A stretch of DNA of 64,000 nucleotides from an uncultured virus (IMG/VR IMGVR_UViG_3300021426_000069). Lineage: Duplodnaviria; Heunggongvirae; Uroviricota; Caudoviricetes. The position numbers and the translations under genes are program-made. Position 1 is the first letter of the stretch. Each line of letters opens with the position of its first letter. Below, piece by piece: positions 1 to 31,221 of this stretch. Where the stretch lies: IMG/VR virus record IMGVR_UViG_3300021426_000069; one strand, 5' to 3'. The notes beneath the pieces were generated by a model, which had not been told where the DNA came from, ran no database searches, and worked only from the letters and a program-made list of their open reading frames with translations.

Positions 1-477
1 AAAAAAAAAAAAAAAAAAAAAAAAAAGACAATACTTTCCCATTATATTATAATATATTTTTTAAATAAAATCAAATAATATAAATTAAGCATCGTCTAAA
101 TCGTAAAAAGGACGCGGTCGGTTTCCGCATCCTATTATTATTATTCTCTCCCATTATAATTATATCAAATTTTTTAATAAAAATCAAGAGAAGCAAAATA
201 AGCCTCGAAAAGTTAATTATTTTTATTAGTTCTTAACATTTTTACGTCAAAAGTATAAAGTCAATAGATAAAGCCAAATTACAAGTCAAGAGCCTAACAA
301 AAAAGAGTTCTTTAAACTCTTCATTTTTTATATATAACAAAAACGATAACGATAAGGATGAAATAAGAAGCTCATATATCGGGACCCGAGGCACCACACA
401 TCGCCCATTCCTTAATCCAGACCATATATTTCTTATATCAATAGCAAATCAATCAAGCTATCGTTCTTATCTCTTAT

Positions 478-747
478 CTACCATCGTCCACCGGAAAAAT
501 AAGTAATACTATTGTTACCACTAATAATAATAGTGTCTTCATCTTCCTTTATTTGTGCCTTTCTTACAATTTCATCAAACTCTTCTAAACCTGCAAAACA
601 ACCTTCTACTTCAGCTTTTAACTTCCTTATATCTCTATCTTTACTATCAATATATTCTTTACATGCGGCAGCCACTTTATTCTTATAACCATCTACTATA
701 AAATTTATCTCATCAATAGTCAAATCTAATTTATCTACTTCTACCAT
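478..747 (-). CDS. hypothetical protein
   Basis: 89-aa ORF with GAGGT RBS-like site upstream; no recognisable motif. Confidence 0.6.
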   Translation of the reverse strand: MVEVDKLDLTIDEINFIVDGYKNKVAAACKEYIDSKDRDIRKLKAEVEGCFAGLEEFDEIVRKAQIKEDEDTIIISGNNSITYFSGGRW

Positions 748-6734: not shown

Positions 6735-6808
6735 TATTATCACTTTTCCTTCCTTTTTTATTTTACATATATATTATATTATATTTTTTATTAAAAATCA
6801 AATATAAA

Positions 6809-7203: not shown

Positions 7204-7992
7204 TTAATCTAAGTCTACTAATTTGCGGATATACTCTCTATTTTCAGTAAAAATAGGTATCTCAGTATCTATGAACCATTTACCATCTTCATCTTTTATT
7301 GCACAAGCCCCGCGTTTAAAATCTGTTCTTTGTTCGTTCCAATTTATGCCTTTTTCAGTAAACATTTTATCTTGTAAATCTTTGCTATTGATACCCTGTA
7401 ATTCTTTATGTGGGTATAATGATTGAGCTAATAAGTTTACACTATTTCTTGTGCAATCTTGTTGACGCCAGATTAAGTTGTTAACTACCTCATATGTTGG
7501 CATATTAAATGCTCTTGCATCAAAGTTAGCCTTATATCTTTTATCTCTTAATAATTCAGCTTTTTTCCAACAATAAAGCTCTTCATCTAACATAAAGTTT
7601 TGATTATGCCATTGAGCATCTATTTCTAACATTTCTATTTCTTTGTCAAGAGCCTTTTGAAAAGCGTTAGTTGCAATACTTGCGGCAACTGAACACATTT
7701 TTTGAACTTGATTATCATACCAAGCCATACTTTCTACTCTTTGATAGTCTACTAATACAAGAGTAATCTCATCAGATTGAGTATAACCCAATACACACCC
7801 TTGAATTTGTTCACATAAAGATTTCATTGTTTTTTGCATTATGTTAATAAGGTTTGTATCATAAGGTCGATCTAATCCTCTTGTCCAAGTGTGGAAATGA
7901 CAACCATCCAATCTAATAATTACTGGTGTTCTACGAAGTAATCTTGTTCTAGATTGCATTTCATATTCTTTCATTCTTTCTCCAAGTGTCAT
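7204..7992 (-). CDS. Thg1-like protein (tRNA-His guanylyltransferase family, 3'-5' polymerase)
   Basis: IIRLDG..FH and YTQSDEI catalytic motifs, FDARAF and WRQQDCTRNS motifs. Confidence 0.95.
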   Translation of the reverse strand: MTLGERMKEYEMQSRTRLLRRTPVIIRLDGCHFHTWTRGLDRPYDTNLINIMQKTMKSLCEQIQGCVLGYTQSDEITLVLVDYQRVESMAWYDNQVQKMCSVAASIATNAFQKALDKEIEMLEIDAQWHNQNFMLDEELYCWKKAELLRDKRYKANFDARAFNMPTYEVVNNLIWRQQDCTRNSVNLLAQSLYPHKELQGINSKDLQDKMFTEKGINWNEQRTDFKRGACAIKDEDGKWFIDTEIPIFTENREYIRKLVDLD

Positions 7993-9706: not shown

Positions 9707-11221
9707 CTACTCATTTATATATACAACTTTATTATATCTTTCAGCTTGAAGCACTTCTAACATTAATTGTTCCCCTGTTTTACCAGTCATAACGCTCTTA
9801 AAGATTATTGGTGAGCATCCACTTACGTAAGATACATCCCAGCCTAAATCTAAAATACGATTATTTCTAGCATTTACATTCCAATAAACTAATTTTGGAA
9901 GTCTTAGCCCAGATAAAGCCCATTGTTCTCTGATTTTTTCCATTTCAGTTAGAGTTTCTTGTTCAGATCTCCAATAACTTCCTCTGTCGATCTCCATATC
10001 AGAGATTACAACAATTGTTTCAGGAATATCAGATTTTGGTATATCATGCCCTAAGATTGTTGATTTTAGTAATTCAAAGACTGCGGAAAGGTCAGTATTG
10101 TCGCATAAGTCTTGTTTATAAATTCTTTGTACTTTATCTACAAAATCTACTCCTTCAACTTTTATAAATTGTGGTCTGCTAGCAAAACTAATAAAATAGT
10201 TTTTAAATGGCTCCCCAATTCTTTCTGCACAATACATTCCAAGTGAAATTGCAACATCAATAGGTCTAACAGATCTGCTTGAGCAAGTCATAGATCCAGA
10301 TGTATCTACAACACACATCATTTTACATTTTTTACCTTCTAGATAATCGTTTTGATTATCCCAGTATTTTTGTAAAGTTGCTCTTTCAGTTTCTGTCATA
10401 TTTATTCCATAGTAAGACATTTTATCAGTTACCTTCTTAACTATCTCATATGGGAATAATGATTTAGCATTTACTTTATTGGCTTTATTTGCCATGAATT
10501 CTGCATATTTGTCTTCAATTATATCTTTGTGAGCAAAAGTATTACTATATTGTAAACCTGCTTTAGAAGGTAGTTTATCAAATTCAATTTCTTCCCATCT
10601 ATTTTCAGACATTAATTTCTCAACAATATTAATTCTAGTTCTCAATGCGGCAAGCATTTTTCTATATTCTTTATGGGACATACCTAGATGTTCTCTAGTT
10701 TTATTTCCAAGTTCTTTAGTTTCAACAGATGAAGCATTTTCACTTTTAATCCATTTAGCTAATAAAGATACTCCTGTATTTTCACTGTTTGCTAAACTTG
10801 TGATGTCTGCTTGTAATTGTTTTTCCATAAAGTCGAACATAGCTAATTCAGCAGGAGTCCCTACTAAACAATATAAATCATCATATCGACCATATTCAGC
10901 AATATTAGAGATATTTGCAATAGCAATTTGTGGATACTCTTTTGCTAACCAATGGAAGCATACACGGAAAAATCTTCTTTCTCCTTGTCCACCCCTAATA
11001 TCACGAAGATAGAATAAGCATTTTAAAGCTAATTCTGGGTTTTCTTCAAACGCATTTTTAAATAATAATATACAATCATTATCTTCACGCATTCTATATG
11101 CTCCACCAAAAGCGAACATATCATATAATGCGGAAAGCGTCGATTTATGAGCTAAAGCTCCGTTCTCAGTTTCTTCAAAATTTGTGGTTTCTAATAAACC
11201 CTCTACTAATTTATTATTCAT
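9707..11221 (-). CDS. DUF2828 family protein (TROVE/Ro60-like helical domain + C-terminal vWA domain)
   Basis: TENGA, RDIRGGQGER, EYGRYDD, LAKW motifs; vWA MIDAS DTSGSM, T and ISDMEID; VYWNV. Confidence 0.85.
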   Translation of the reverse strand: MNNKLVEGLLETTNFEETENGALAHKSTLSALYDMFAFGGAYRMREDNDCILLFKNAFEENPELALKCLFYLRDIRGGQGERRFFRVCFHWLAKEYPQIAIANISNIAEYGRYDDLYCLVGTPAELAMFDFMEKQLQADITSLANSENTGVSLLAKWIKSENASSVETKELGNKTREHLGMSHKEYRKMLAALRTRINIVEKLMSENRWEEIEFDKLPSKAGLQYSNTFAHKDIIEDKYAEFMANKANKVNAKSLFPYEIVKKVTDKMSYYGINMTETERATLQKYWDNQNDYLEGKKCKMMCVVDTSGSMTCSSRSVRPIDVAISLGMYCAERIGEPFKNYFISFASRPQFIKVEGVDFVDKVQRIYKQDLCDNTDLSAVFELLKSTILGHDIPKSDIPETIVVISDMEIDRGSYWRSEQETLTEMEKIREQWALSGLRLPKLVYWNVNARNNRILDLGWDVSYVSGCSPIIFKSVMTGKTGEQLMLEVLQAERYNKVVYINE

Positions 11222-15733: not shown

Positions 15734-15985
15734 ATACGGTGGTGTGTTTCTTTATAAGTAAAGAACACTCCGTAAGAAACCTACTAATTGTTTAACAATA
15801 GTGTTGTAACCCCTGTTTTAACTAGCTTTCTGCACTCAACTCTGACCTTGCTAGATGGTAAGTCCTAGCGCCCCGAGCAATTGGTGGCACTTACTTTTTC
15901 CAAGTATGTTGTTTTTCACAACTTTCTTAACCTTACATATATATTATATTATAATTTTTTGAAAAAATCAATTTAAGAAGTATAA

Positions 15986-16148
15986 TGGCAAGCCGTTGGA
16001 TAATATTGTGACTTAGGTCAAGGAGATTTTCTCCGTGAATTACACTCCGTTACCAGATATGCACTTTCGTTTCAAAATTCAGGTATGCGGTTGCCCTACA
16101 TACGCCTTGATTACCACTTAGTTCACACTCTAATTCCAACGAGTTTAC
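15986..16148 (-). ncRNA. ~160-nt rod-like RNA ending in GCCA
   Basis: Nested end-to-end helices CGUUGGA/UCCAACG, UGUGA/UCACA, UCAAGG/CCUUGA. Confidence 0.5.
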
Positions 16149-16184
16149 GCCCTAGAAGTTTTCCTTGCAATAATTTGCTTGTGA

Positions 16185-16481
16185 CTAGGATAACGCGCCA
16201 TCAATAGCGATGTCATCAGGATAGTCTGATTTGATGTCCTTTAACATATTTAACATTTGTCTTAATATCTTTTCAGTATATTGTCCGTCTTTTTTCACTT
16301 TTATATCTAGGACACCATTAACATCTGTTGAGTCAATAGTATCTTCAATAAGTTCTATATAATTAATAGTAGCTATTGACAGTGCGGAAACCGCTGCACA
16401 GACGTTATTGTCGCGACAATGTCCTGTAAAAGTGATTTCTTTTATTAAATTATTTTCTTCAATAACTTGTACATTAACCAT
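16185..16481 (-). CDS. prp: ribosomal-processing cysteine protease Prp (DUF464)
   Basis: TGH....VCAAVS His-Cys dyad motif and C-terminal I...YP..I. Confidence 0.85.
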   Translation of the reverse strand: MVNVQVIEENNLIKEITFTGHCRDNNVCAAVSALSIATINYIELIEDTIDSTDVNGVLDIKVKKDGQYTEKILRQMLNMLKDIKSDYPDDIAIDGALS

Positions 16482-19855: not shown

Positions 19856-20124
19856 TTTTTCTTATTCTATTTTCTATTTCCTAAATCTATATGAATAAAA
19901 ATTATTATCTTTTCAATTTACATATATATTATATAATAATTTTTAATAAAAATCAACATAAGGGTTTGATTCCCATTAGATAATGATAAATCAAACCGAA
20001 GATATATATAAACGGGCGCAATGCCCAGTTAAAAAGGAAATATTCTATTTTTTTAGTCCTGATGACAAAGCGAAAACAGAATAAGAAAACTTTAATCTAT
20101 ATATACTTGATATATCTTACTTAA

Positions 20125-20747: not shown

Positions 20748-21192
20748 TGGTGGACCTGACGGGATTCGAACCCGTGTCCAAAAACCAATTACTAATTAGA
20801 AATCTCATTCTTACGTTACAAGTTTTACCATACATCTATATGGGTCAAGGTGACGATTCGATCCCTATCTCATTATGTTCACCTACGTTCAGAGAGGGCT
20901 TCTATATTAAAAGTAATTCACAATAGTCAATCATATAGAAGAAGAATTGAACTATGCGGCAATCTTTGCTCGTTAATACGACTATGCTTTTTCTGATTGC
21001 TCTCTGATACTAACATAGAAGTTTCTTAGTCTTACGCAAAGGCTACGCAATTGAATGCGAATAAAGATTTAACTTTATTAGAAATTTTTGTAAATAAGTT
21101 TCCATTTATTTTTATTTGTTTGCCTTTTAACTAACTGCCTAGTACTTGTATTCTAACTTTTCATCAATTCCTGTCGAAACCTAAACAAGCCC
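20748..21192 (-). ncRNA. ssrA: tmRNA (445 nt); tag (A)GNLFTKISNKVKSLFAFNCVAFA*
   Basis: 5' GGGCUUGUUUAGGUUUCGAC, 3' GACACGGGUUCGAAUCCCGUCAGGUCCACCA, G3-U pair; tag ORF 21103-21032 after AUAAAU. Confidence 0.93.
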
Positions 21193-21419: not shown

Positions 21420-21488
21420 AGCCGTAAATTGGATTTGAACCAATATTGCTAATATTTCTATTAGTGTTTTCCATTAAACTATTACGAC
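21420..21488 (-). ncRNA. tRNA-like RNA with GAAA tetraloop replacing the anticodon loop
   Basis: Acceptor GUCGUAA/UUACGGC, D arm GUUU/AAAC, CUAAUA-GAAA-UAUUAG, T arm AUUGG-UUCAAAU-CCAAU; no CCA. Confidence 0.7.
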
Positions 21489-22067: not shown

Positions 22068-22157
22068 TGGCAGAAGGTTGGATTCGAACCAACAACTCAC
22101 GTGTCCTGGTTGTTAAGATTGCGTACGCCCACACTCTTCCAATTGAGTTACTTCTGC
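22068..22157 (-). ncRNA. tRNA-like RNA with intact acceptor, D and T arms but no canonical anticodon arm
   Basis: GCAGAAG/CUUCUGC, ACUC/GAGU, GUUGG-UUCGAAU-CCAAC; ~38-nt irregular central region. Confidence 0.7.
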
Positions 22158-22246: not shown

Positions 22247-22477
22247 TTAAGCAGCTTTGCTTTCATCTTTCTTATTTCTGCGACCACTTCCTGCTGGGTG
22301 TTCCTTAGCAAAAGCTGCAGCCGCCTCTATAATTTCTTTGCCTCTGGCAGTAAGATATTTAGATGCCATAGGATTTCTTTTTAATTTCTTATTTGTTTTT
22401 CCTTTTTTATCTAGGTTAGCTTGAGTAATAATATAATGTCCTTCTCCGCTACCTGATTTACCTTTTCTTTTTGCCAT
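22247..22477 (-). CDS. small, highly basic protein
   Basis: Own promoter, AGGGAG RBS, K/R-rich. Confidence 0.7.
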   Translation of the reverse strand: MAKRKGKSGSGEGHYIITQANLDKKGKTNKKLKRNPMASKYLTARGKEIIEAAAAFAKEHPAGSGRRNKKDESKAA

Positions 22478-22854
22478 ATACGAATACTCCCTTTCTTTTT
22501 TATTTACATATATATTATATTAAAATTTTTAATTAAAATCAATAAAGAAAATCAGATTTCGTATAACAAGCTTCTTATGGTAGTATCAAAATCTTTGATA
22601 TGTTTTTATAATCGCTTGCCCCATCCTTTTCTTATTTTTAATTCCATAAAATATGTAAATTTTCTTCATCATAGGCGGTTACCCTATGCTTTTTGTAACA
22701 ATAGCATTACTTAAAAATACTAAGAGGAGCCCGTCAATGAGGAACGTTTTCCCCGTTTAAGTCAAAGACTAACATATCTTAAATAGTTCTAATGAACAAA
22801 TAGACCTTTCTATCTTGTCAGTCCATTTACAGTGATTAAACTTCCTTAAAACTC

Positions 22855-22906
22855 AAGATACAGAGTCACAAAATTGATTAGATACCTTTTTCGCTGTTTG
22901 TATCTT
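22855..22906 (-). ncRNA. 52-nt RNA, terminal stem + CAGCGAA motif (copy 3)
   Basis: AAGAUACA/UGUAUCUU stem followed by AACAGCGAAA. Confidence 0.5.
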
Positions 22907-23044
22907 TAGGGTTAAAAAGAATGTTACTAAATCTGATTGTGAAAAGATTGTTGGTTCTCACTAGGGGTTCTCTTTTCACTACTACCTAGTTTGAGTTTAA
23001 AATCATAGTCTCCGGAGAGACTGTTTGCAGTATCGCCCCGTTTT

Positions 23045-23096
23045 AAAGAGATTAGTAAAAACGCCAACGCCGCGGGAAGGCTCTCTTTATGTTGGC
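23045..23096 (-). ncRNA. minimal HDV-like (theta-type) self-cleaving ribozyme
   Basis: P1 GCCAAC/GUUGGC, P2 AAAGAGA/UCUCUUU, P3 GCC/GGC, L3 UUCCCGC, J4/2 CUAA; G1 lies 1 nt after the tRNA-Cys CCA. Confidence 0.85.
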
Positions 23097-23097
23097 A

Positions 23098-23172
23098 TGG
23101 AGCACCCTGCTGGATTTGAACCAGCGATCACGGAGTTGCAGTCCGTTGCCTTACCAACTTGGCTAAGGGTGC
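23098..23172 (-). tRNA. tRNA-Cys(GCA)
   Basis: Canonical cloverleaf, U73, CCA. Confidence 0.95.
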
Positions 23173-23222
23173 AATGACGCTTGTGCATCAAAGATAAAAA
23201 ACAATATGTTTATTTTATTTTA

Positions 23223-23621
23223 TTATAGAATTTCTATTGTATCTTTAGTTGGTTTTTCAGGTTTTTTTGTTGGAATAATAATGTATAGTAACCCATTTCT
23301 CATACTAGATTTGATGTTAGAAAGGTCTAACCCCTCTTCATTTAATGCAAATCTTGAACTGACTGAGTATTCTCTTTTTGTTAGGCTATCTTTTGTTTTA
23401 CCTTCTATTGCAATATAAGTCGTTCCATTTTCCTTCTCTTTTGTTACTTTCAAATCTTCCTTGTTAATACCTAAAACATTGTGAACAATAATTGTTTTTT
23501 CTTCGTCTGAGGAAATTGAATATGGATGCATATCTTTTTCTCCTCTATTAAATCTGTAATTTTTCTTGTCCCAATCTAATAAAATTGGTGTAAAAATATC
23601 ATCAAAATCAAAATCAAACAT
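23223..23621 (-). CDS. Hsp20/alpha-crystallin small heat-shock protein
   Basis: V.GINKEDLKV...IEG...F.L.....I.SSMRNGLL.IIIP; start adjusted to ATG after AAAGGAG. Confidence 0.85.
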   Translation of the reverse strand: MFDFDFDDIFTPILLDWDKKNYRFNRGEKDMHPYSISSDEEKTIIVHNVLGINKEDLKVTKEKENGTTYIAIEGKTKDSLTKREYSVSSRFALNEEGLDLSNIKSSMRNGLLYIIIPTKKPEKPTKDTIEIL

Positions 23622-24010
23622 ACTAAAATCTCCTTTCGTAAAAAACAACTTTGACGCACAAACATAATTTATATGGAAAAGGTTCTTTACCTTTTTCATA
23701 CTTATATTATATCATTATTTTTTACAAAAGTCAAACTTTACTCTGTAACAAGAGTGCACTCAACTACAATAAATCTGTTTTTTAAATATTGTAAATAAGG
23801 TAGGTGCGTTACTGTAGCAAGGTGTTTTCTACCCTCGTCATCAATATACATTACTCTATAATAAGGTGGTTTAATAACCTCAGTTTCGTCATCATAATAA
23901 TCTTTGTTTTCCATATATAATTCCTCCTTTATTTACATTATTATTATATAATATTTTTTCAAAAAAATCAAATTAAAAATAGGCGGAAATGCCGCCTACT
24001 TTTATTAAAA

Positions 24011-26874: not shown

Positions 26875-26906
26875 ATATATAATATTAAAAAAAGGAGATG
26901 ATTTAT

Positions 26907-27599
26907 ATGGCTAAATATGCTTTTACTGATATTCATGGCAACTATGATTTATGGTTAGCCATAAAGAATTATTGTAAAGAAGATGATGAAATATTCTTTC
27001 TAGGAGATGCAATTGATCGCGGTCCAGATGGAATTAAAATTATGCAAGAATTATTTAAGGATAAAAGAGTTACTTATATAATAGGTAATCACGAAGATAT
27101 GTTTTTAGATTATGTAAAAAATATTAATATGGCGTTATTAGTACAAAAAAGTATAATTATAGAAAATAAAACACTAGTAACACTTCGAGCTTTTCAAGCT
27201 CTAAGTGAACAAGAGCAAGAAGAATTAGTATATAACTTAAAAACAAAAACTGTTTATAAAACATTATATATAAATAAGGATAATAAAAAAATTTATTTAT
27301 CACATTCTGGATTTAGTTTTAAAGATTTATTAAGTGATAGACCTGCGGATTTCATCTGGAACCGCAATCATTTAACTGAGACAGAATGGTATGGAGATGA
27401 AAATACTTATATAGTACATGGACATTCACCTGTTCAATATCTACAAACAAAAGTAAAAGAATTGGAAGGGAAAAAGTCTATAACTATTTGTAAATATTGT
27501 CATCAACATAAAATAGATTTAGATCTAGCAACTTTTGTATCAAAAAAAATTGCTTTACTTGATTTAGACACCCTAGAACCTATATACTTTGTAGAATAG
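26907..27599 (+). CDS. Ser/Thr protein phosphatase-like metallophosphoesterase
   Basis: DIHG, GDAIDRG, GNHE, SHSG, HGHSP motifs. Confidence 0.9.
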   Translation: MAKYAFTDIHGNYDLWLAIKNYCKEDDEIFFLGDAIDRGPDGIKIMQELFKDKRVTYIIGNHEDMFLDYVKNINMALLVQKSIIIENKTLVTLRAFQALSEQEQEELVYNLKTKTVYKTLYINKDNKKIYLSHSGFSFKDLLSDRPADFIWNRNHLTETEWYGDENTYIVHGHSPVQYLQTKVKELEGKKSITICKYCHQHKIDLDLATFVSKKIALLDLDTLEPIYFVE

Positions 27600-28218: not shown

Positions 28219-29481
28219 ATGTTAAATCCAAAAACAAAACAAAGAGAACTTGCTTACACTGTTAAAATTGATGATATACTTCCAATAGAAGGTTCAGATA
28301 ATTGTGAATGTGCGGTAGTAGGTGGATGGCATGTAATGACTAGAAAAGGTACTTTTAAACCAGGCGATATAGCTGTTTATTTTGAAATAGATAGTAAATT
28401 ACCTGAAAGACAATGGTCAGAGTTTCTAGCTTCTAAACATTATAAAATAAAAACTCAAAAATATACTTTTGGAGGAAAAGGAAACTTTGTATCTCAAGGT
28501 TTACTTATGGCTCTTGGAGATTTTTGTGAAAATGGAGGAACACTTGCTTGCATTGCCGCAATTCAAATGGGTTGGAATGTAGCTAAGCTACATGAACTAC
28601 CAGGTGATGAATATATAAATATTCCATTAACTGATGAACTTGGAGTTATTTATTCTGTCATAGAAGATAATAAAAGAAAATCTAATGCTGATAAATATAG
28701 TAGAATGTATCAAAGACACATAAAATTATTTAAAAAGCATAAATTATTAAGAACTCTATATAAATATACTTGGGGTAAAAAATTCTTATTTATCTTCTTA
28801 GGAAAGAAAAGAGATGGAAGAAGCTGGCCTGCATGGGTAGTTAAAACAGATGAAGAAAGAGTTCAAAATATGCCATTCTTATTCCCTGGTAACCCAGAAA
28901 AAGAATGGATGGTAACAGAAAAAATTGATGGAACTTCAACAACATTTACTATGAAAAGACTAAAAAGAAATAAGTATGACTTTTATGTATGTTCAAGAAA
29001 TGTATGTTTTGATAAACCTGATAAAAAATGTTATTATGAAACAAATGTTTATACTGAAATGGCAGAAAAATACAATGCCGAAGAAGTTTTAAAAAACATT
29101 TTAGATACTCATAAAGAATTTGAATTTGTAACAATTCAAGGAGAAACTTATGGTAAGAGTGTTCAAAATAGAGATTATAGCATAGACTATGTTGATTTTG
29201 CAGCATTTAACTTAATATTTGGATACAAAGATGGAGCAACAAAAAGATTAAATCCAAGAGAAATGACTGAAATATTAGTAAATACATATAATATTCCTTG
29301 TGTTCCAATATTAGACGAACATTTCATTTTACCAGAAACTTGTGATGAAATGGTTGCATATGCAGATGGCATATCGCAACTAGATGGAGAAATGAGAGAA
29401 GGAGTTGTATTAAGAACTCTAGATGGTAGAGAAAGTTTTAAAGCTGTATCTAACGAATTCTTAATTAAATACCATCAATAG
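28219..29481 (+). CDS. RNA ligase (Rnl2 / DRB0094-like) with N-terminal OB domain
   Basis: TEKIDG motif I, SRN, QGETYG, FAAFN, EGVV, FKAVS. Confidence 0.9.
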   Translation: MLNPKTKQRELAYTVKIDDILPIEGSDNCECAVVGGWHVMTRKGTFKPGDIAVYFEIDSKLPERQWSEFLASKHYKIKTQKYTFGGKGNFVSQGLLMALGDFCENGGTLACIAAIQMGWNVAKLHELPGDEYINIPLTDELGVIYSVIEDNKRKSNADKYSRMYQRHIKLFKKHKLLRTLYKYTWGKKFLFIFLGKKRDGRSWPAWVVKTDEERVQNMPFLFPGNPEKEWMVTEKIDGTSTTFTMKRLKRNKYDFYVCSRNVCFDKPDKKCYYETNVYTEMAEKYNAEEVLKNILDTHKEFEFVTIQGETYGKSVQNRDYSIDYVDFAAFNLIFGYKDGATKRLNPREMTEILVNTYNIPCVPILDEHFILPETCDEMVAYADGISQLDGEMREGVVLRTLDGRESFKAVSNEFLIKYHQ

Positions 29482-29573
29482 TAAGATTACCGCCTTATAA
29501 AGCGGTAATTTTATTTTTATAAAATTTTATGATATAATATATATGTAAATATAAAAGAAAGGAAATGATAATT

Positions 29574-29795: not shown

Positions 29796-30135
29796 TAGAT
29801 TTTTCTGCACTAAATGCGGAAAAGAAGGACTTCCAGTTCATCGTAAAAAAGGTCAAGAAAGAAAAGGTGGACATTTAAAGAAATTATATTGTATTTATTG
29901 TGGAGAGGAAACAAATCACGCAGAAATAAAAGAAAATGATAATTATACTTATGAAACTTTTAGAGAAGAGTTTGAAGCAGGAAGATTTGTAGAAGGTAAT
30001 CGTTATGAGATTAATGAGCTTTTAAGTTGCACAAAAATAGATTGCCCATATAATAAGAATGGTAGGTGTTGGAACTCAGACTTTTCAAATGATTGTGGTC
30101 ATAGAATAAAAAAGGAGTTGAATGAAAATGAGTAA
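29767..30135 (+). CDS. Cys-rich zinc-binding protein
   Basis: CTKC, HLKKLYCIYC and a second Cys cluster. Confidence 0.7.
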   Translation: MSKTFQIKTSRFFCTKCGKEGLPVHRKKGQERKGGHLKKLYCIYCGEETNHAEIKENDNYTYETFREEFEAGRFVEGNRYEINELLSCTKIDCPYNKNGRCWNSDFSNDCGHRIKKELNENE

Positions 30136-30637
30136 ACTATATATTATGATGGGAATACCTGGTTCAGGAAAATCAACTTGGTGTGAAGAAAATATATCTA
30201 ATAAAGATAATTACGTATCAAGAGATAGAGTTAGATTTGGCTTGCTAAAAGCAGGAGATAGTTATTTTTCAAAAGAAAATGAGGTTTATAAAGAATTTGT
30301 TAATATTATCAATAGAAAATTAATGACAAATAAAGAAGTTTATGTTGATCAAACCTCTTTAGACTCAAGAGCAAGAAAAAAACTATTAAATTCTTTACAA
30401 GTTAAACCTGATGAAGTTCATGTTATCTGGTTAAAAACACCTCTTCAAAAAAGTTTACTTTATAATGCAAAAAGAAAAGGTCTTGAAAGAGTTCCCGATC
30501 ATTCTATTATACAAATGCATAGTAGGCTAGAAAGACCAACTTGGTCCGAAGGAATAAAATATCTTCATATTATAGAAAATGGAAAAGAAACTATTATAGA
30601 TTTAGAGGCGGAGGCGAATAAAGAATGGATTCTTTAG
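30128..30637 (+). CDS. polynucleotide kinase-like P-loop protein
   Basis: GIPGSGKST Walker A, SRD..R, VDQT, R...RVP, PT..EG. Confidence 0.85.
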   Translation: MSKLYIMMGIPGSGKSTWCEENISNKDNYVSRDRVRFGLLKAGDSYFSKENEVYKEFVNIINRKLMTNKEVYVDQTSLDSRARKKLLNSLQVKPDEVHVIWLKTPLQKSLLYNAKRKGLERVPDHSIIQMHSRLERPTWSEGIKYLHIIENGKETIIDLEAEANKEWIL

Positions 30638-31221
30638 AAAGAAAAATTTGGTTTACAAGCGATACCCATTTCGGACATCAAAGAGATTTTCTTTACGAAC
30701 CACGCGGATTTGCTAGCTCAGAGGAACATGATGCCGCAATCATTAAAAATTGGAACTCTGTTGTTGGCCCTGACGATGAGGTTTACCATCTTGGAGATGT
30801 GATGCTTGGAGATAATGAACACGGTATAAAATGCCTAGAGCAATTAAATGGAAGAATTCATATTCTTATAGGAAATCATGATACAGATACTCGTATTCAA
30901 CTTTATAGACAATGTAAAAATGTTGTTTCTATTGATTATGCTTTAAGAAAAAAGTTCGGGAAATACCACGTATGGCTATCACACTATCCAACAATTACCG
31001 CAAACTATGATGATGATAAGCCATGGGCTAAACATATGGTAAATATTTATGGACATACACATCAACAATCTAAATTTTATTCAGATAACCCATATATGTA
31101 TTGCGTTTGTCTAGATGCCCATGATAATAAGCTAGTTTCTCTTGAGCAAATAGTAGAAGATGTAAAAGAGAAAAAAATTGCGTTAGATAATTCCATAGGC
31201 GGACAGCCTTGGTTCTATTAA
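30625..31221 (+). CDS. calcineurin-like phosphoesterase
   Basis: SDTHFGH, HLGD, GNHD, SHYP, GHTH. Confidence 0.9.
   Translation: MDSLERKIWFTSDTHFGHQRDFLYEPRGFASSEEHDAAIIKNWNSVVGPDDEVYHLGDVMLGDNEHGIKCLEQLNGRIHILIGNHDTDTRIQLYRQCKNVVSIDYALRKKFGKYHVWLSHYPTITANYDDDKPWAKHMVNIYGHTHQQSKFYSDNPYMYCVCLDAHDNKLVSLEQIVEDVKEKKIALDNSIGGQPWFY

Follow-up and report, generated by a model that had tools for sequence, protein, structure and literature searches.

We analysed a 64,000-nucleotide (nt) stretch of DNA (the window) from an uncultured phage of the Caudoviricetes, IMG/VR record IMGVR_UViG_3300021426_000069, in which an initial annotation had placed a minimal self-cleaving ribozyme of the hepatitis delta virus (HDV)-like, theta type behind a transfer RNA (tRNA) gene. 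On the minus strand, a tRNA-Cys gene with anticodon GCA and an encoded U73-CCA (23098..23172; called by ARAGORN and scored at 68.7 bits by the Rfam tRNA model) is followed by a single U (23097), the -1 nucleotide of the predicted cut, and then by the 52-nt ribozyme element (23045..23096), which was delimited with a descriptor and covariance models and has its predicted cut 5′ of G23096. Directly upstream lies an Hsp20-family gene (23223..23699, minus strand; Pfam HSP20, E 2e-9), preceded on the same strand by a sigma-70-like promoter, TTGACT-17-TATAAT (23706..23734), predicted solely from its 11/12 consensus match, which could carry hsp20, tRNA-Cys, ribozyme and a non-coding RNA (ncRNA) in one transcript. 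Beyond the element, a conserved, transcribed non-coding region follows on the minus strand (22570..23044, 3′ limit approximate), recognised from RNA contigs and from alignment with two diverged relatives. Judging from the comparative evidence below, 23096-23045 very probably is an active minimal theta-type HDV-like self-cleaving ribozyme.

Architecture of the element and its standing against chance

The minus-strand sequence given in the initial annotation proved exact to the base. In the style of Supplementary Data 1 of PMC10879173 its segments read GCCAAC/AU/AAAGAGA/GCC/U/UC/CCGC/GGC/GUUGGC/GU/UUUUA/CUAA/UCUCUUU, which gives the order P1-J1/2-P2-P3-L3-P3′-P1′-P1.1-L4(P4)-J4/2-P2′ (P, pairing; J, joining; L, loop) of a nested double pseudoknot without P4. 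The 5′ strand of P1 (GCCAAC, 23096-23091) forms six Watson-Crick pairs with P1′ (GUUGGC, 23068-23063). After J1/2 (AU, 23090-23089), the 5′ strand of P2 (AAAGAGA, 23088-23082) makes the pseudoknot pairing with P2′ (UCUCUUU, 23051-23045); this helix can be extended to 8 base pairs (bp) by U23089-A23044, in which case the ribozyme counts 53 nt. P3 (GCC, 23081-23079) pairs with P3′ (GGC, 23071-23069), and the resulting 3-bp helix encloses L3 (UUCCCGC, 23078-23072), of the form N-NN-NCGY. The 3′ side of P1.1 (GU, 23062-23061) is followed by the 5-nt L4 (UUUUA, 23060-23056), which replaces P4, and by J4/2 (CUAA, 23055-23052), with C23055 as the predicted catalytic cytosine. P1, P2 and P3 together comprise 16 pairs, every one of them Watson-Crick. 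The +1 nucleotide is a G, as in HDV-like ribozymes; this G23096 pairs with C23063 and lies 1 nt past the CCA of tRNA-Cys, within the ±5 nt of a tRNA 3′ end by which theta ribozymes count as tRNA-associated.

In P1.1, C23076 pairs with G23062 and U23077 stands opposite U23061, an arrangement common to all variants of the lineage. The string GUUUUUA, which the initial annotation had read as one block, has to be divided: its G belongs to P1.1, the next U faces U23077, and the remaining UUUUA is L4. A 7-bp P1 starting at U23097, with the cut right after CCA, was rejected, as it needs a U at +1 and leaves no P1.1.

A strict descriptor (Watson-Crick P3, L3 of the form NNCNCGY, G after P1′, J4/2 CNAA, and a 7-bp P2 with at most one mismatch) found one site on the two strands of the window with C at the catalytic position, none in the window with a decoy A, T or G there, and none in 300 Markov-1 windows simulated from the dinucleotide statistics of the window. 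Such an HDV-like descriptor search had been proposed with the initial annotation, and its single window match is 23096-23045. A looser descriptor gave a few unrelated sites per 128 kilobases (kb), none of them beside a tRNA; since it yields chance sites, topology alone is weak evidence.

Covariance models gave the same answer. A short motif pattern for the theta type yielded at least 122 loci in IMG/VR; among the matches listed, 79 have both helices and comprise 71 unique sequences of the CC/GG type of P1.1. A MAFFT alignment of all 71 was dropped, its 5′ end being inconsistent with the structure, and the modelling was instead based on 18 of the 71 with a common architecture (6-bp P1, J1/2 of one base). 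Since the two arms of a pseudoknot do not fit into a single model, two were built, R1 from P1 and P3 and R2 from P2 and P3, and both were run on the window with filters off. The E-values are rough because the calibration was shortened, and in both searches the element was the top match: 17.6 bits (E 0.075) with R1, where the runner-up reached 11.6 bits, and 22.5 bits (E 0.0051) with R2, where it reached 15.8 bits. The homologue in the diverged relative L003 scored 39.4 and 40.0 bits, respectively. A third model, R3, built from 27 ribozymes of other phages in the subgroup described below, none of them from the candidate's lineage, again placed the element first in the window, with 49.6 bits (E 3.2e-11, equally rough). 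A second R3 match at 29268-29305 (20.2 bits) is spurious, lacking P3/L3 and lying antisense inside a ligase gene, and weak Rfam matches to a small nucleolar RNA, TarB and PhotoRC were dismissed as chance. We conclude that the element is more than a chance arrangement of helices and represents a real ribozyme fold.

Relatives and a branch with a single P1.1 pair

One metagenome scan and two viral scans recovered near-identical phages (L001 and L004-L008) and two diverged relatives, L003 and L135. The order Hsp20, tRNA-Cys, ribozyme is kept in both of the latter; the 21-kb viral contig L135 carries an Hsp20-like gene, a tRNA-Cys with CCA, one U and then a ribozyme reading GCCAAC/A/AGAGAAA/GCC/UUCACGU/GGC/GUUGGU/GU/UUUCA/CUAA/UUUCUCA. 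The junction CUCCA-U-G is common to L001, L003 and L135. Identity with the window is 83% (L003) and 77% (L135) over the tRNA and 87% and 81% over the ribozyme, and only 48% and 45% over the next 150 nt. A complete relative of 135,791 bp (direct terminal repeats, CheckV 100%) has one ribozyme and about 25 tRNAs. Across the four distinct lineage sequences, 98.6% of alignment cells are paired, compared with 40-56% in slid controls, and P3 and the L3 pattern are invariant. The first P1 pair alternates between G-C and G.U: it is G1-C in the window and G1.U in L001, L003 and L135, and P1′ reads GUUGGU, giving the wobble, in four of the six near-identical copies. Compensatory double changes affect two P2 pairs in L003 and L135 (A-U to G-C and G-C to A-U).

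In L003, a 38-nt tRNA-like minihelix ending in UCCA (483..446, minus strand) lies between tRNA-Cys and ribozyme. With its 5-bp acceptor-like stem and 6-bp arm (-13 kcal/mol, z -2.5), it may be a tRNA remnant or mimic. Searches in other directions gave little: blastn against 50,697 phage records returned no match, a search of viral contigs with the Hsp20 protein returned the close relative only, and the nearest record, the 19-kb fragment G001, has no match and carries no weight. A pattern search of genome contigs gave 10 loci, none matched by R2, which were treated as chance; with a P1-anchored pattern in viral contigs, seven of nine loci had neither an R2 match nor a tRNA and were set aside.

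The unusual P1.1 is not a peculiarity of this lineage. A viral IMG/VR scan with the pattern GCCTTCNCGYGGC-N6-GTTTT, which leaves the P1 5′ strand and P2 both unconstrained, gave 101 loci, at 91 of which P1 and P2 are both present. These 91 two-helix loci reduce to 43 unique sequences; in 28 of them ARAGORN places a tRNA end no more than 1 nt from G1 (Thr 12, Ser 6, Cys 4, Gln 2, others 4). For alignment, L003 was added to 28 of the 43 with identical segment lengths, the other 15 being left out because the alignment was kept gap-free. In these 29 sequences, 97.6% of cells are paired, compared with 73% in shuffles (0 of 500 reach 97.6%), a value inflated because sequences with two or more mismatches in a helix were left out; the unbiased figure is 91/101. 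Double changes occur in 11 of 17 pairs, including six of the seven P2 pairs, and P2 is here, as in the theta type, a covarying pseudoknot of about 7 bp (7-8 bp in the element). The G1.U pair, the C-G pair of P1.1, the U/U columns next to it and the catalytic C that opens J4/2 are invariant in all 29. The U-rich L4 is a family feature, reading TTTTA in published rows and in 17 of the 43 subgroup sequences.

At the cut itself, the preceding base is C in 25 of the 43 unique sequences of this UC/GU branch (loci L151-L247, IMG/VR), with upstream ends that include ...GCUC, ...GCGC and ...GUGC; read from the sequences, in many of its tRNAs the cut may fall behind C74 and not behind the discriminator. 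Within the branch, CCA-U before the cut occurs only in the tRNA-Cys lineage.

Of seven strings typical of UC/GU sequences, five are absent from the eight files searched in the supplement of PMC10879173, and the remaining two are confined to numbers 420 and 1024, in both of which P1.1 is paired. A literature search found no further paper on such variants. The element belongs to a branch with a 6-bp P1 and a P1.1 made of one C-G pair and a U.U, which is common and was not found in the published lists searched. The placement of a minimal theta-type ribozyme at the tRNA-Cys trailer, as first annotated, is accordingly borne out by descriptor statistics, covariance models, covariation and the tRNA adjacency of the subgroup.

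The downstream RNA and competing explanations

Evidence from RNA consists of assembled contigs from four RNA runs of three studies. Over the downstream region these span 22400-23079 (X15), 22820-23062 (X16), 22579-23086 (X18) and 22605-22996 (X19), so that in three of the four runs they end 10-34 nt short of the cut site, at 23079, 23062 and 23086. The hsp20 contigs stop at 23175, 23190 and 23189, and a single contig, 23073-23269 at depth 3, crosses the cut. As a weak hint, the pattern is consistent with processing at both tRNA ends. The initial annotation had the ribozyme set the 5′ end of a ~500-nt transcript; contigs of all three studies cover that region and end at the three positions named, which lends this idea weak support.

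The downstream region has conserved blocks in L003 and L135, and RNAalifold predicts a long-range helix, GGGGC/GUUCC, that starts ~5 nt past the ribozyme and closes about 320 nt. An inner helix, AAGAUACA/UGUAUCUU, shows two compensatory pairs in the alignment with L003 and L135. No Rfam family matches the region, and motif searches for copies of a CAGC stem (1 and 3 matches) were uninformative. A terminator-like hairpin at 23022-23007 was rejected as a stop: the X15, X16 and X18 contigs run through it, and L003 and L135 differ in sequence there. The ncRNA ends before the next copy of a ~55-nt AT-rich, promoter-like repeat. This repeat contains TTGATT-17-TATAAT and has 31 sites in the window at E < 1e-3 (for example 22488-22550, 6748-6801, 19908-19956 and 29510-29562); its top matches (E ≤ 2e-11) are on the minus strand up to about 26.7 kb and on the plus strand beyond that point, and it is probably the promoter consensus of the phage. 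Upstream of the cut, one further X15 contig (23175-23669, minus strand, depth 707; this run only) has a circularly permuted order, in which 23175, only 3 nt ahead of the tRNA-Cys 5′ end, is joined back to 23669, beside a 12-bp hairpin at 23672-23700; a circular RNA, a ligated RNA or an artefact of the library could account for it.

Several observations weigh against an active theta-type ribozyme at this site or narrow the evidence for it. Folding the bare sequence by minimum free energy is unremarkable (z -0.56) and shows only the P1/P3 hairpin, as expected because the program cannot see pseudoknots. Rfam 15 gives no HDV-family match in 22950-23200 at E ≤ 10, nor in the relatives. P1 has 6 bp, not 7, a length also found in 25 of the 71 CC/GG-type sequences among the matches listed and in published rows. 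G1.U is present in 42 of the 43 subgroup sequences, the window copy with its G1-C being the exception. In L135 the outermost P2 pair is broken (A.A), and the covariation within the lineage is thin, with four distinct sequences and about two evolutionary events. The high pairing figure of the subgroup alignment is subject to the selection described above. The true ends of an RNA are not visible in assembled contigs, and RNA sequencing recovers tRNAs poorly. A P1.1 of two pairs, formed by L3 positions 2-3 with the two nucleotides after P1′, is absent here, and all published rows compared show both pairs. Finally, the contig of a close relative is missing from the hit lists of PMC10879173, although contigs from the same sample are listed.

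An active ribozyme might have been selected for the 5′ end of the downstream ncRNA, with release of tRNA-Cys a by-product that host ribonucleases (RNases) could achieve as well. This explanation overlaps with the one preferred here. It draws on the downstream region being kept in L003 and L135 with a closing helix ~5 nt past the ribozyme, on RNA contigs that start inside the ribozyme and extend ~500 nt, on the L003 ribozyme sitting behind the minihelix rather than the tRNA itself, on the complete 135.8-kb relative having a ribozyme at only one of its tRNAs, about 25 in number, and on the R2 ribozymes which, according to PMC3774820, set the 5′ end of a downstream RNA. Yet a tRNA 3′ end adjoins 28 of the 43 subgroup sequences and the L003 element upstream of the ribozyme still ends in UCCA-U, so that a tRNA-like 3′ end is the conserved link across the subgroup. 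We regard selection for the ncRNA end in the first place as the less likely account.

We regard it as improbable that the fold is an inactive descendant of a ribozyme, retained for its structure at the 5′ end of the ncRNA or as a signal that directs processing by a protein RNase, even though the U.U in P1.1 (a feature without counterpart in the published search), the rarity of G1-C in the subgroup (1 of 43) and the one low-depth contig across the cut would all suit it. Decay would not be expected to preserve G1, the C and G of L3 and the J4/2 C with its following NAA, residues of the HDV mechanism that are invariant across the 29 subgroup sequences; moreover, G1-C is found in 18 of the 71 unique CC/GG-type ribozymes among the matches listed, and the abundant RNA contigs do not cross the site. 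Least credible by far is that the P1/P3 hairpin with GUUUUUA forms an intrinsic terminator of the tRNA-Cys gene and that the P2 complementarity is coincidental. Although a GC-rich stem is followed here by a run of five U and the minimum-free-energy fold shows that hairpin only, a terminator scan did not call it, a 9-nt asymmetric bulge interrupts the hairpin, and RNA contigs of three studies continue ~500 nt downstream. Coincidence is further contradicted by the covariation of P2, by the U-rich L4 as a family feature and by a descriptor expectation below one site in 300 windows.

The phage setting, a proposed pathway and known systems

The phage has 30.8% GC, 24 tRNAs called by ARAGORN, a transfer-messenger RNA (tmRNA) and long open reading frames under translation table 11, and the runs containing this DNA are animal-gut metagenomes, the phage itself being from cattle gut. 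No suppressor tRNA is among the ARAGORN calls in the window. Across the divergent junction from the ribozyme side, all on the plus strand, sit candidate RNA-repair genes: a calcineurin-like phosphoesterase of predicted function (26898..27599), a Pnkp-like P-loop kinase (30122-30637) and, overlapping the kinase gene, a second metallophosphoesterase (30625-31221), the last two being candidate enzymes for end healing, and an RNA ligase of the DRB0094/Naegleria Rnl5 type (28219..29481; Pfam RNA_ligase plus PHA02142 OB; PDB 5cot, E 3.8e-27), whose best match, TIGR02306, is below cut-off.

The tRNA region holds further features, all on the minus strand. The Rfam model for OLE (Ornate Large Extremophilic) RNA matches 15969-16305 with 107.2 bits (E 3.7e-27), spanning model positions 1-616 with no more than 337 nt of sequence; a phage would be an unusual carrier of an OLE-like RNA. 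The phage-encoded tmRNA lies at 20748-21192 (61.6 bits), ARAGORN calls a tRNA with a 2-nt anticodon at 21420-21488, and an 89-nt Rfam tRNA match at 22069-22157 (42.7 bits) is not in the ARAGORN list. Among the tRNA genes are also a homologue of the Thg1-like tRNA-His guanylyltransferase (7204-7992, E 4e-32) and a gene for a 504-amino-acid DUF2828/DUF7788 protein (9707-11221), which hint at a tRNA and RNA metabolism run by the phage.

In the pathway we propose, hsp20, tRNA-Cys, ribozyme and ncRNA would be transcribed together, probably from the promoter at 23734-23706, and RNase P would cut 5′ of tRNA-Cys. The ribozyme would fold with a 6-bp P1, a 7-8-bp P2, a 3-bp P3, a P1.1 of one C-G pair and a U.U, and no P4, and C23055 in J4/2, with Mg2+, would cut between U23097 and G23096. 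By HDV-like chemistry the tRNA-Cys product should then end in CCA-U with a 2′,3′-cyclic phosphate; the second product would be a 5′-OH RNA that begins with the ribozyme and continues into the conserved ~500-nt ncRNA. tRNA-Cys would next need end healing and the loss of one U, the former possibly by the kinase/phosphoesterase set of the phage and the latter possibly with host exonucleases. It is plausible, going by gene content, that a phage phosphoesterase heals CCA-U>p, as first annotated. Most likely, the role of the ribozyme is to free the tail of tRNA-Cys and to form the front end of the conserved ncRNA. A more ambitious version, in which an unlisted, widespread theta branch with one P1.1 pair provides the 5′ module of a new structured RNA of ~330-520 nt and, at the same time, an uncharged CCA-U>p 'pro-tRNA' activated by the phage kinase, phosphoesterase and ligase, giving timing control, strikes us as unlikely as a whole.

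What follows for the family is more immediate. The published theta lists appear to miss a branch with at least 43 unique IMG/VR sequences, most of them at tRNA ends, because the published descriptor requires a fully paired P1.1, and counts of ribozyme-processed phage tRNAs are underestimates. The U.U position is a natural test case for how much P1.1 an HDV-like core needs. If the pathway is true, one cut releases a tRNA and makes the 5′ end of an abundant, conserved phage ncRNA, a two-product use that is not discussed in published work and may explain some 'isolated' theta ribozymes; the encoded CCA with one U would be a specific substrate for the RNA end-healing genes of the phage. None of this changes the kind of element concerned, which is a known type of ribozyme.

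The genomic and antigenomic HDV ribozymes share several features with the element: the nucleotide at the cut is G1, which forms a G.U or G-C pair as the first of P1, L3 has a U...C.CG core, and J4/2 begins with the catalytic C, with two A behind it; HDV-type cleavage leaves a 2′,3′-cyclic phosphate and a 5′-OH. The element differs from them in its P1 of 6 bp rather than 7, the absence of P4, the one Watson-Crick pair in P1.1 and the lack of an Rfam HDV match. Minimal HDV-like ribozymes of the drz-Mtgn type, as described in PMC10879173, are likewise nested double pseudoknots without P4; they are metagenomic sequences whose origin and context are not known. Closer in use are the HDV-like ribozymes of R2 retrotransposons, which, according to PMC3774820, set the 5′ end of the downstream RNA. 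Like the phage element in the proposed pathway, they free a functional downstream RNA from a structured RNA that precedes it in the same transcript and stay as the 5′ end of the product, and some natural R2 copies lack P4 or have mismatches in P1.1 or P3; unlike the phage element, they belong to a eukaryotic mobile element and have 28S rRNA instead of a tRNA as upstream partner.

The nearest relatives are the theta ribozymes, tRNA-associated minimal HDV-like ribozymes of gut Caudoviricetes (PMC10879173, Kienbeck et al. 2024), and among them the rows of the 6-bp-P1 type GCC/T/TC/NCGY/GGC/.../GA, numbers 150, 167, 174, 219 and 339. The element shares with theta ribozymes the domain order and lengths (P1 6, J1/2 1-2, P2 7, P3 GCC/GGC, a 7-nt L3 ending in CGY), the short L4, the J4/2 CTAA of most published rows, the cut at a phage tRNA 3′ end and the animal-gut host phage. 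Segment strings such as GCC/T/TC/ACGC/GGC and GT/TTTTA/CTAA recur in published rows, and a 3-bp P3 closing a 7-nt L3 of the form N-NN-NCGY is common to the element and all 37 published rows compared in one set. An encoded CCA with a 1-nt spacer is found in number 219, and like many theta phages this one has a DRB0094-type RNA ligase, a family present in 54.5% of theta-carrying phages (PMC10879173). The sense tRNA in a standard-code phage, to which the initial annotation drew attention, is real and yet not unusual, since according to that paper only one in five theta-associated tRNAs is a suppressor; in its Supplementary Data 1, 'Cys' appears 45 times. Sense-tRNA association, tRNA-Cys and CCA with a 1-nt spacer are thus already known, all being in the published table, and what is new is the variant branch with U.U in P1.1.

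In published rows the second P1.1 pair is C-G, U-A, G.U or A-U, in the classes CC/GG, UC/GA (numbers 150, 167, 174, 219 and 339), GC/GU (number 420) and AC/GU (number 1024), whereas it is U.U here. Also unlike most theta ribozymes, the element follows a tRNA with CCA, which holds for only 4.5% of the associated tRNAs in PMC10879173, and it is set apart from the published rows by being the one ribozyme of its genome with a conserved ncRNA behind it. Every defining theta feature that was tested is present except the second P1.1 pair. There is good support for placing the element in the wider HDV-like class, but strict membership in the set of the published descriptor is not supported.

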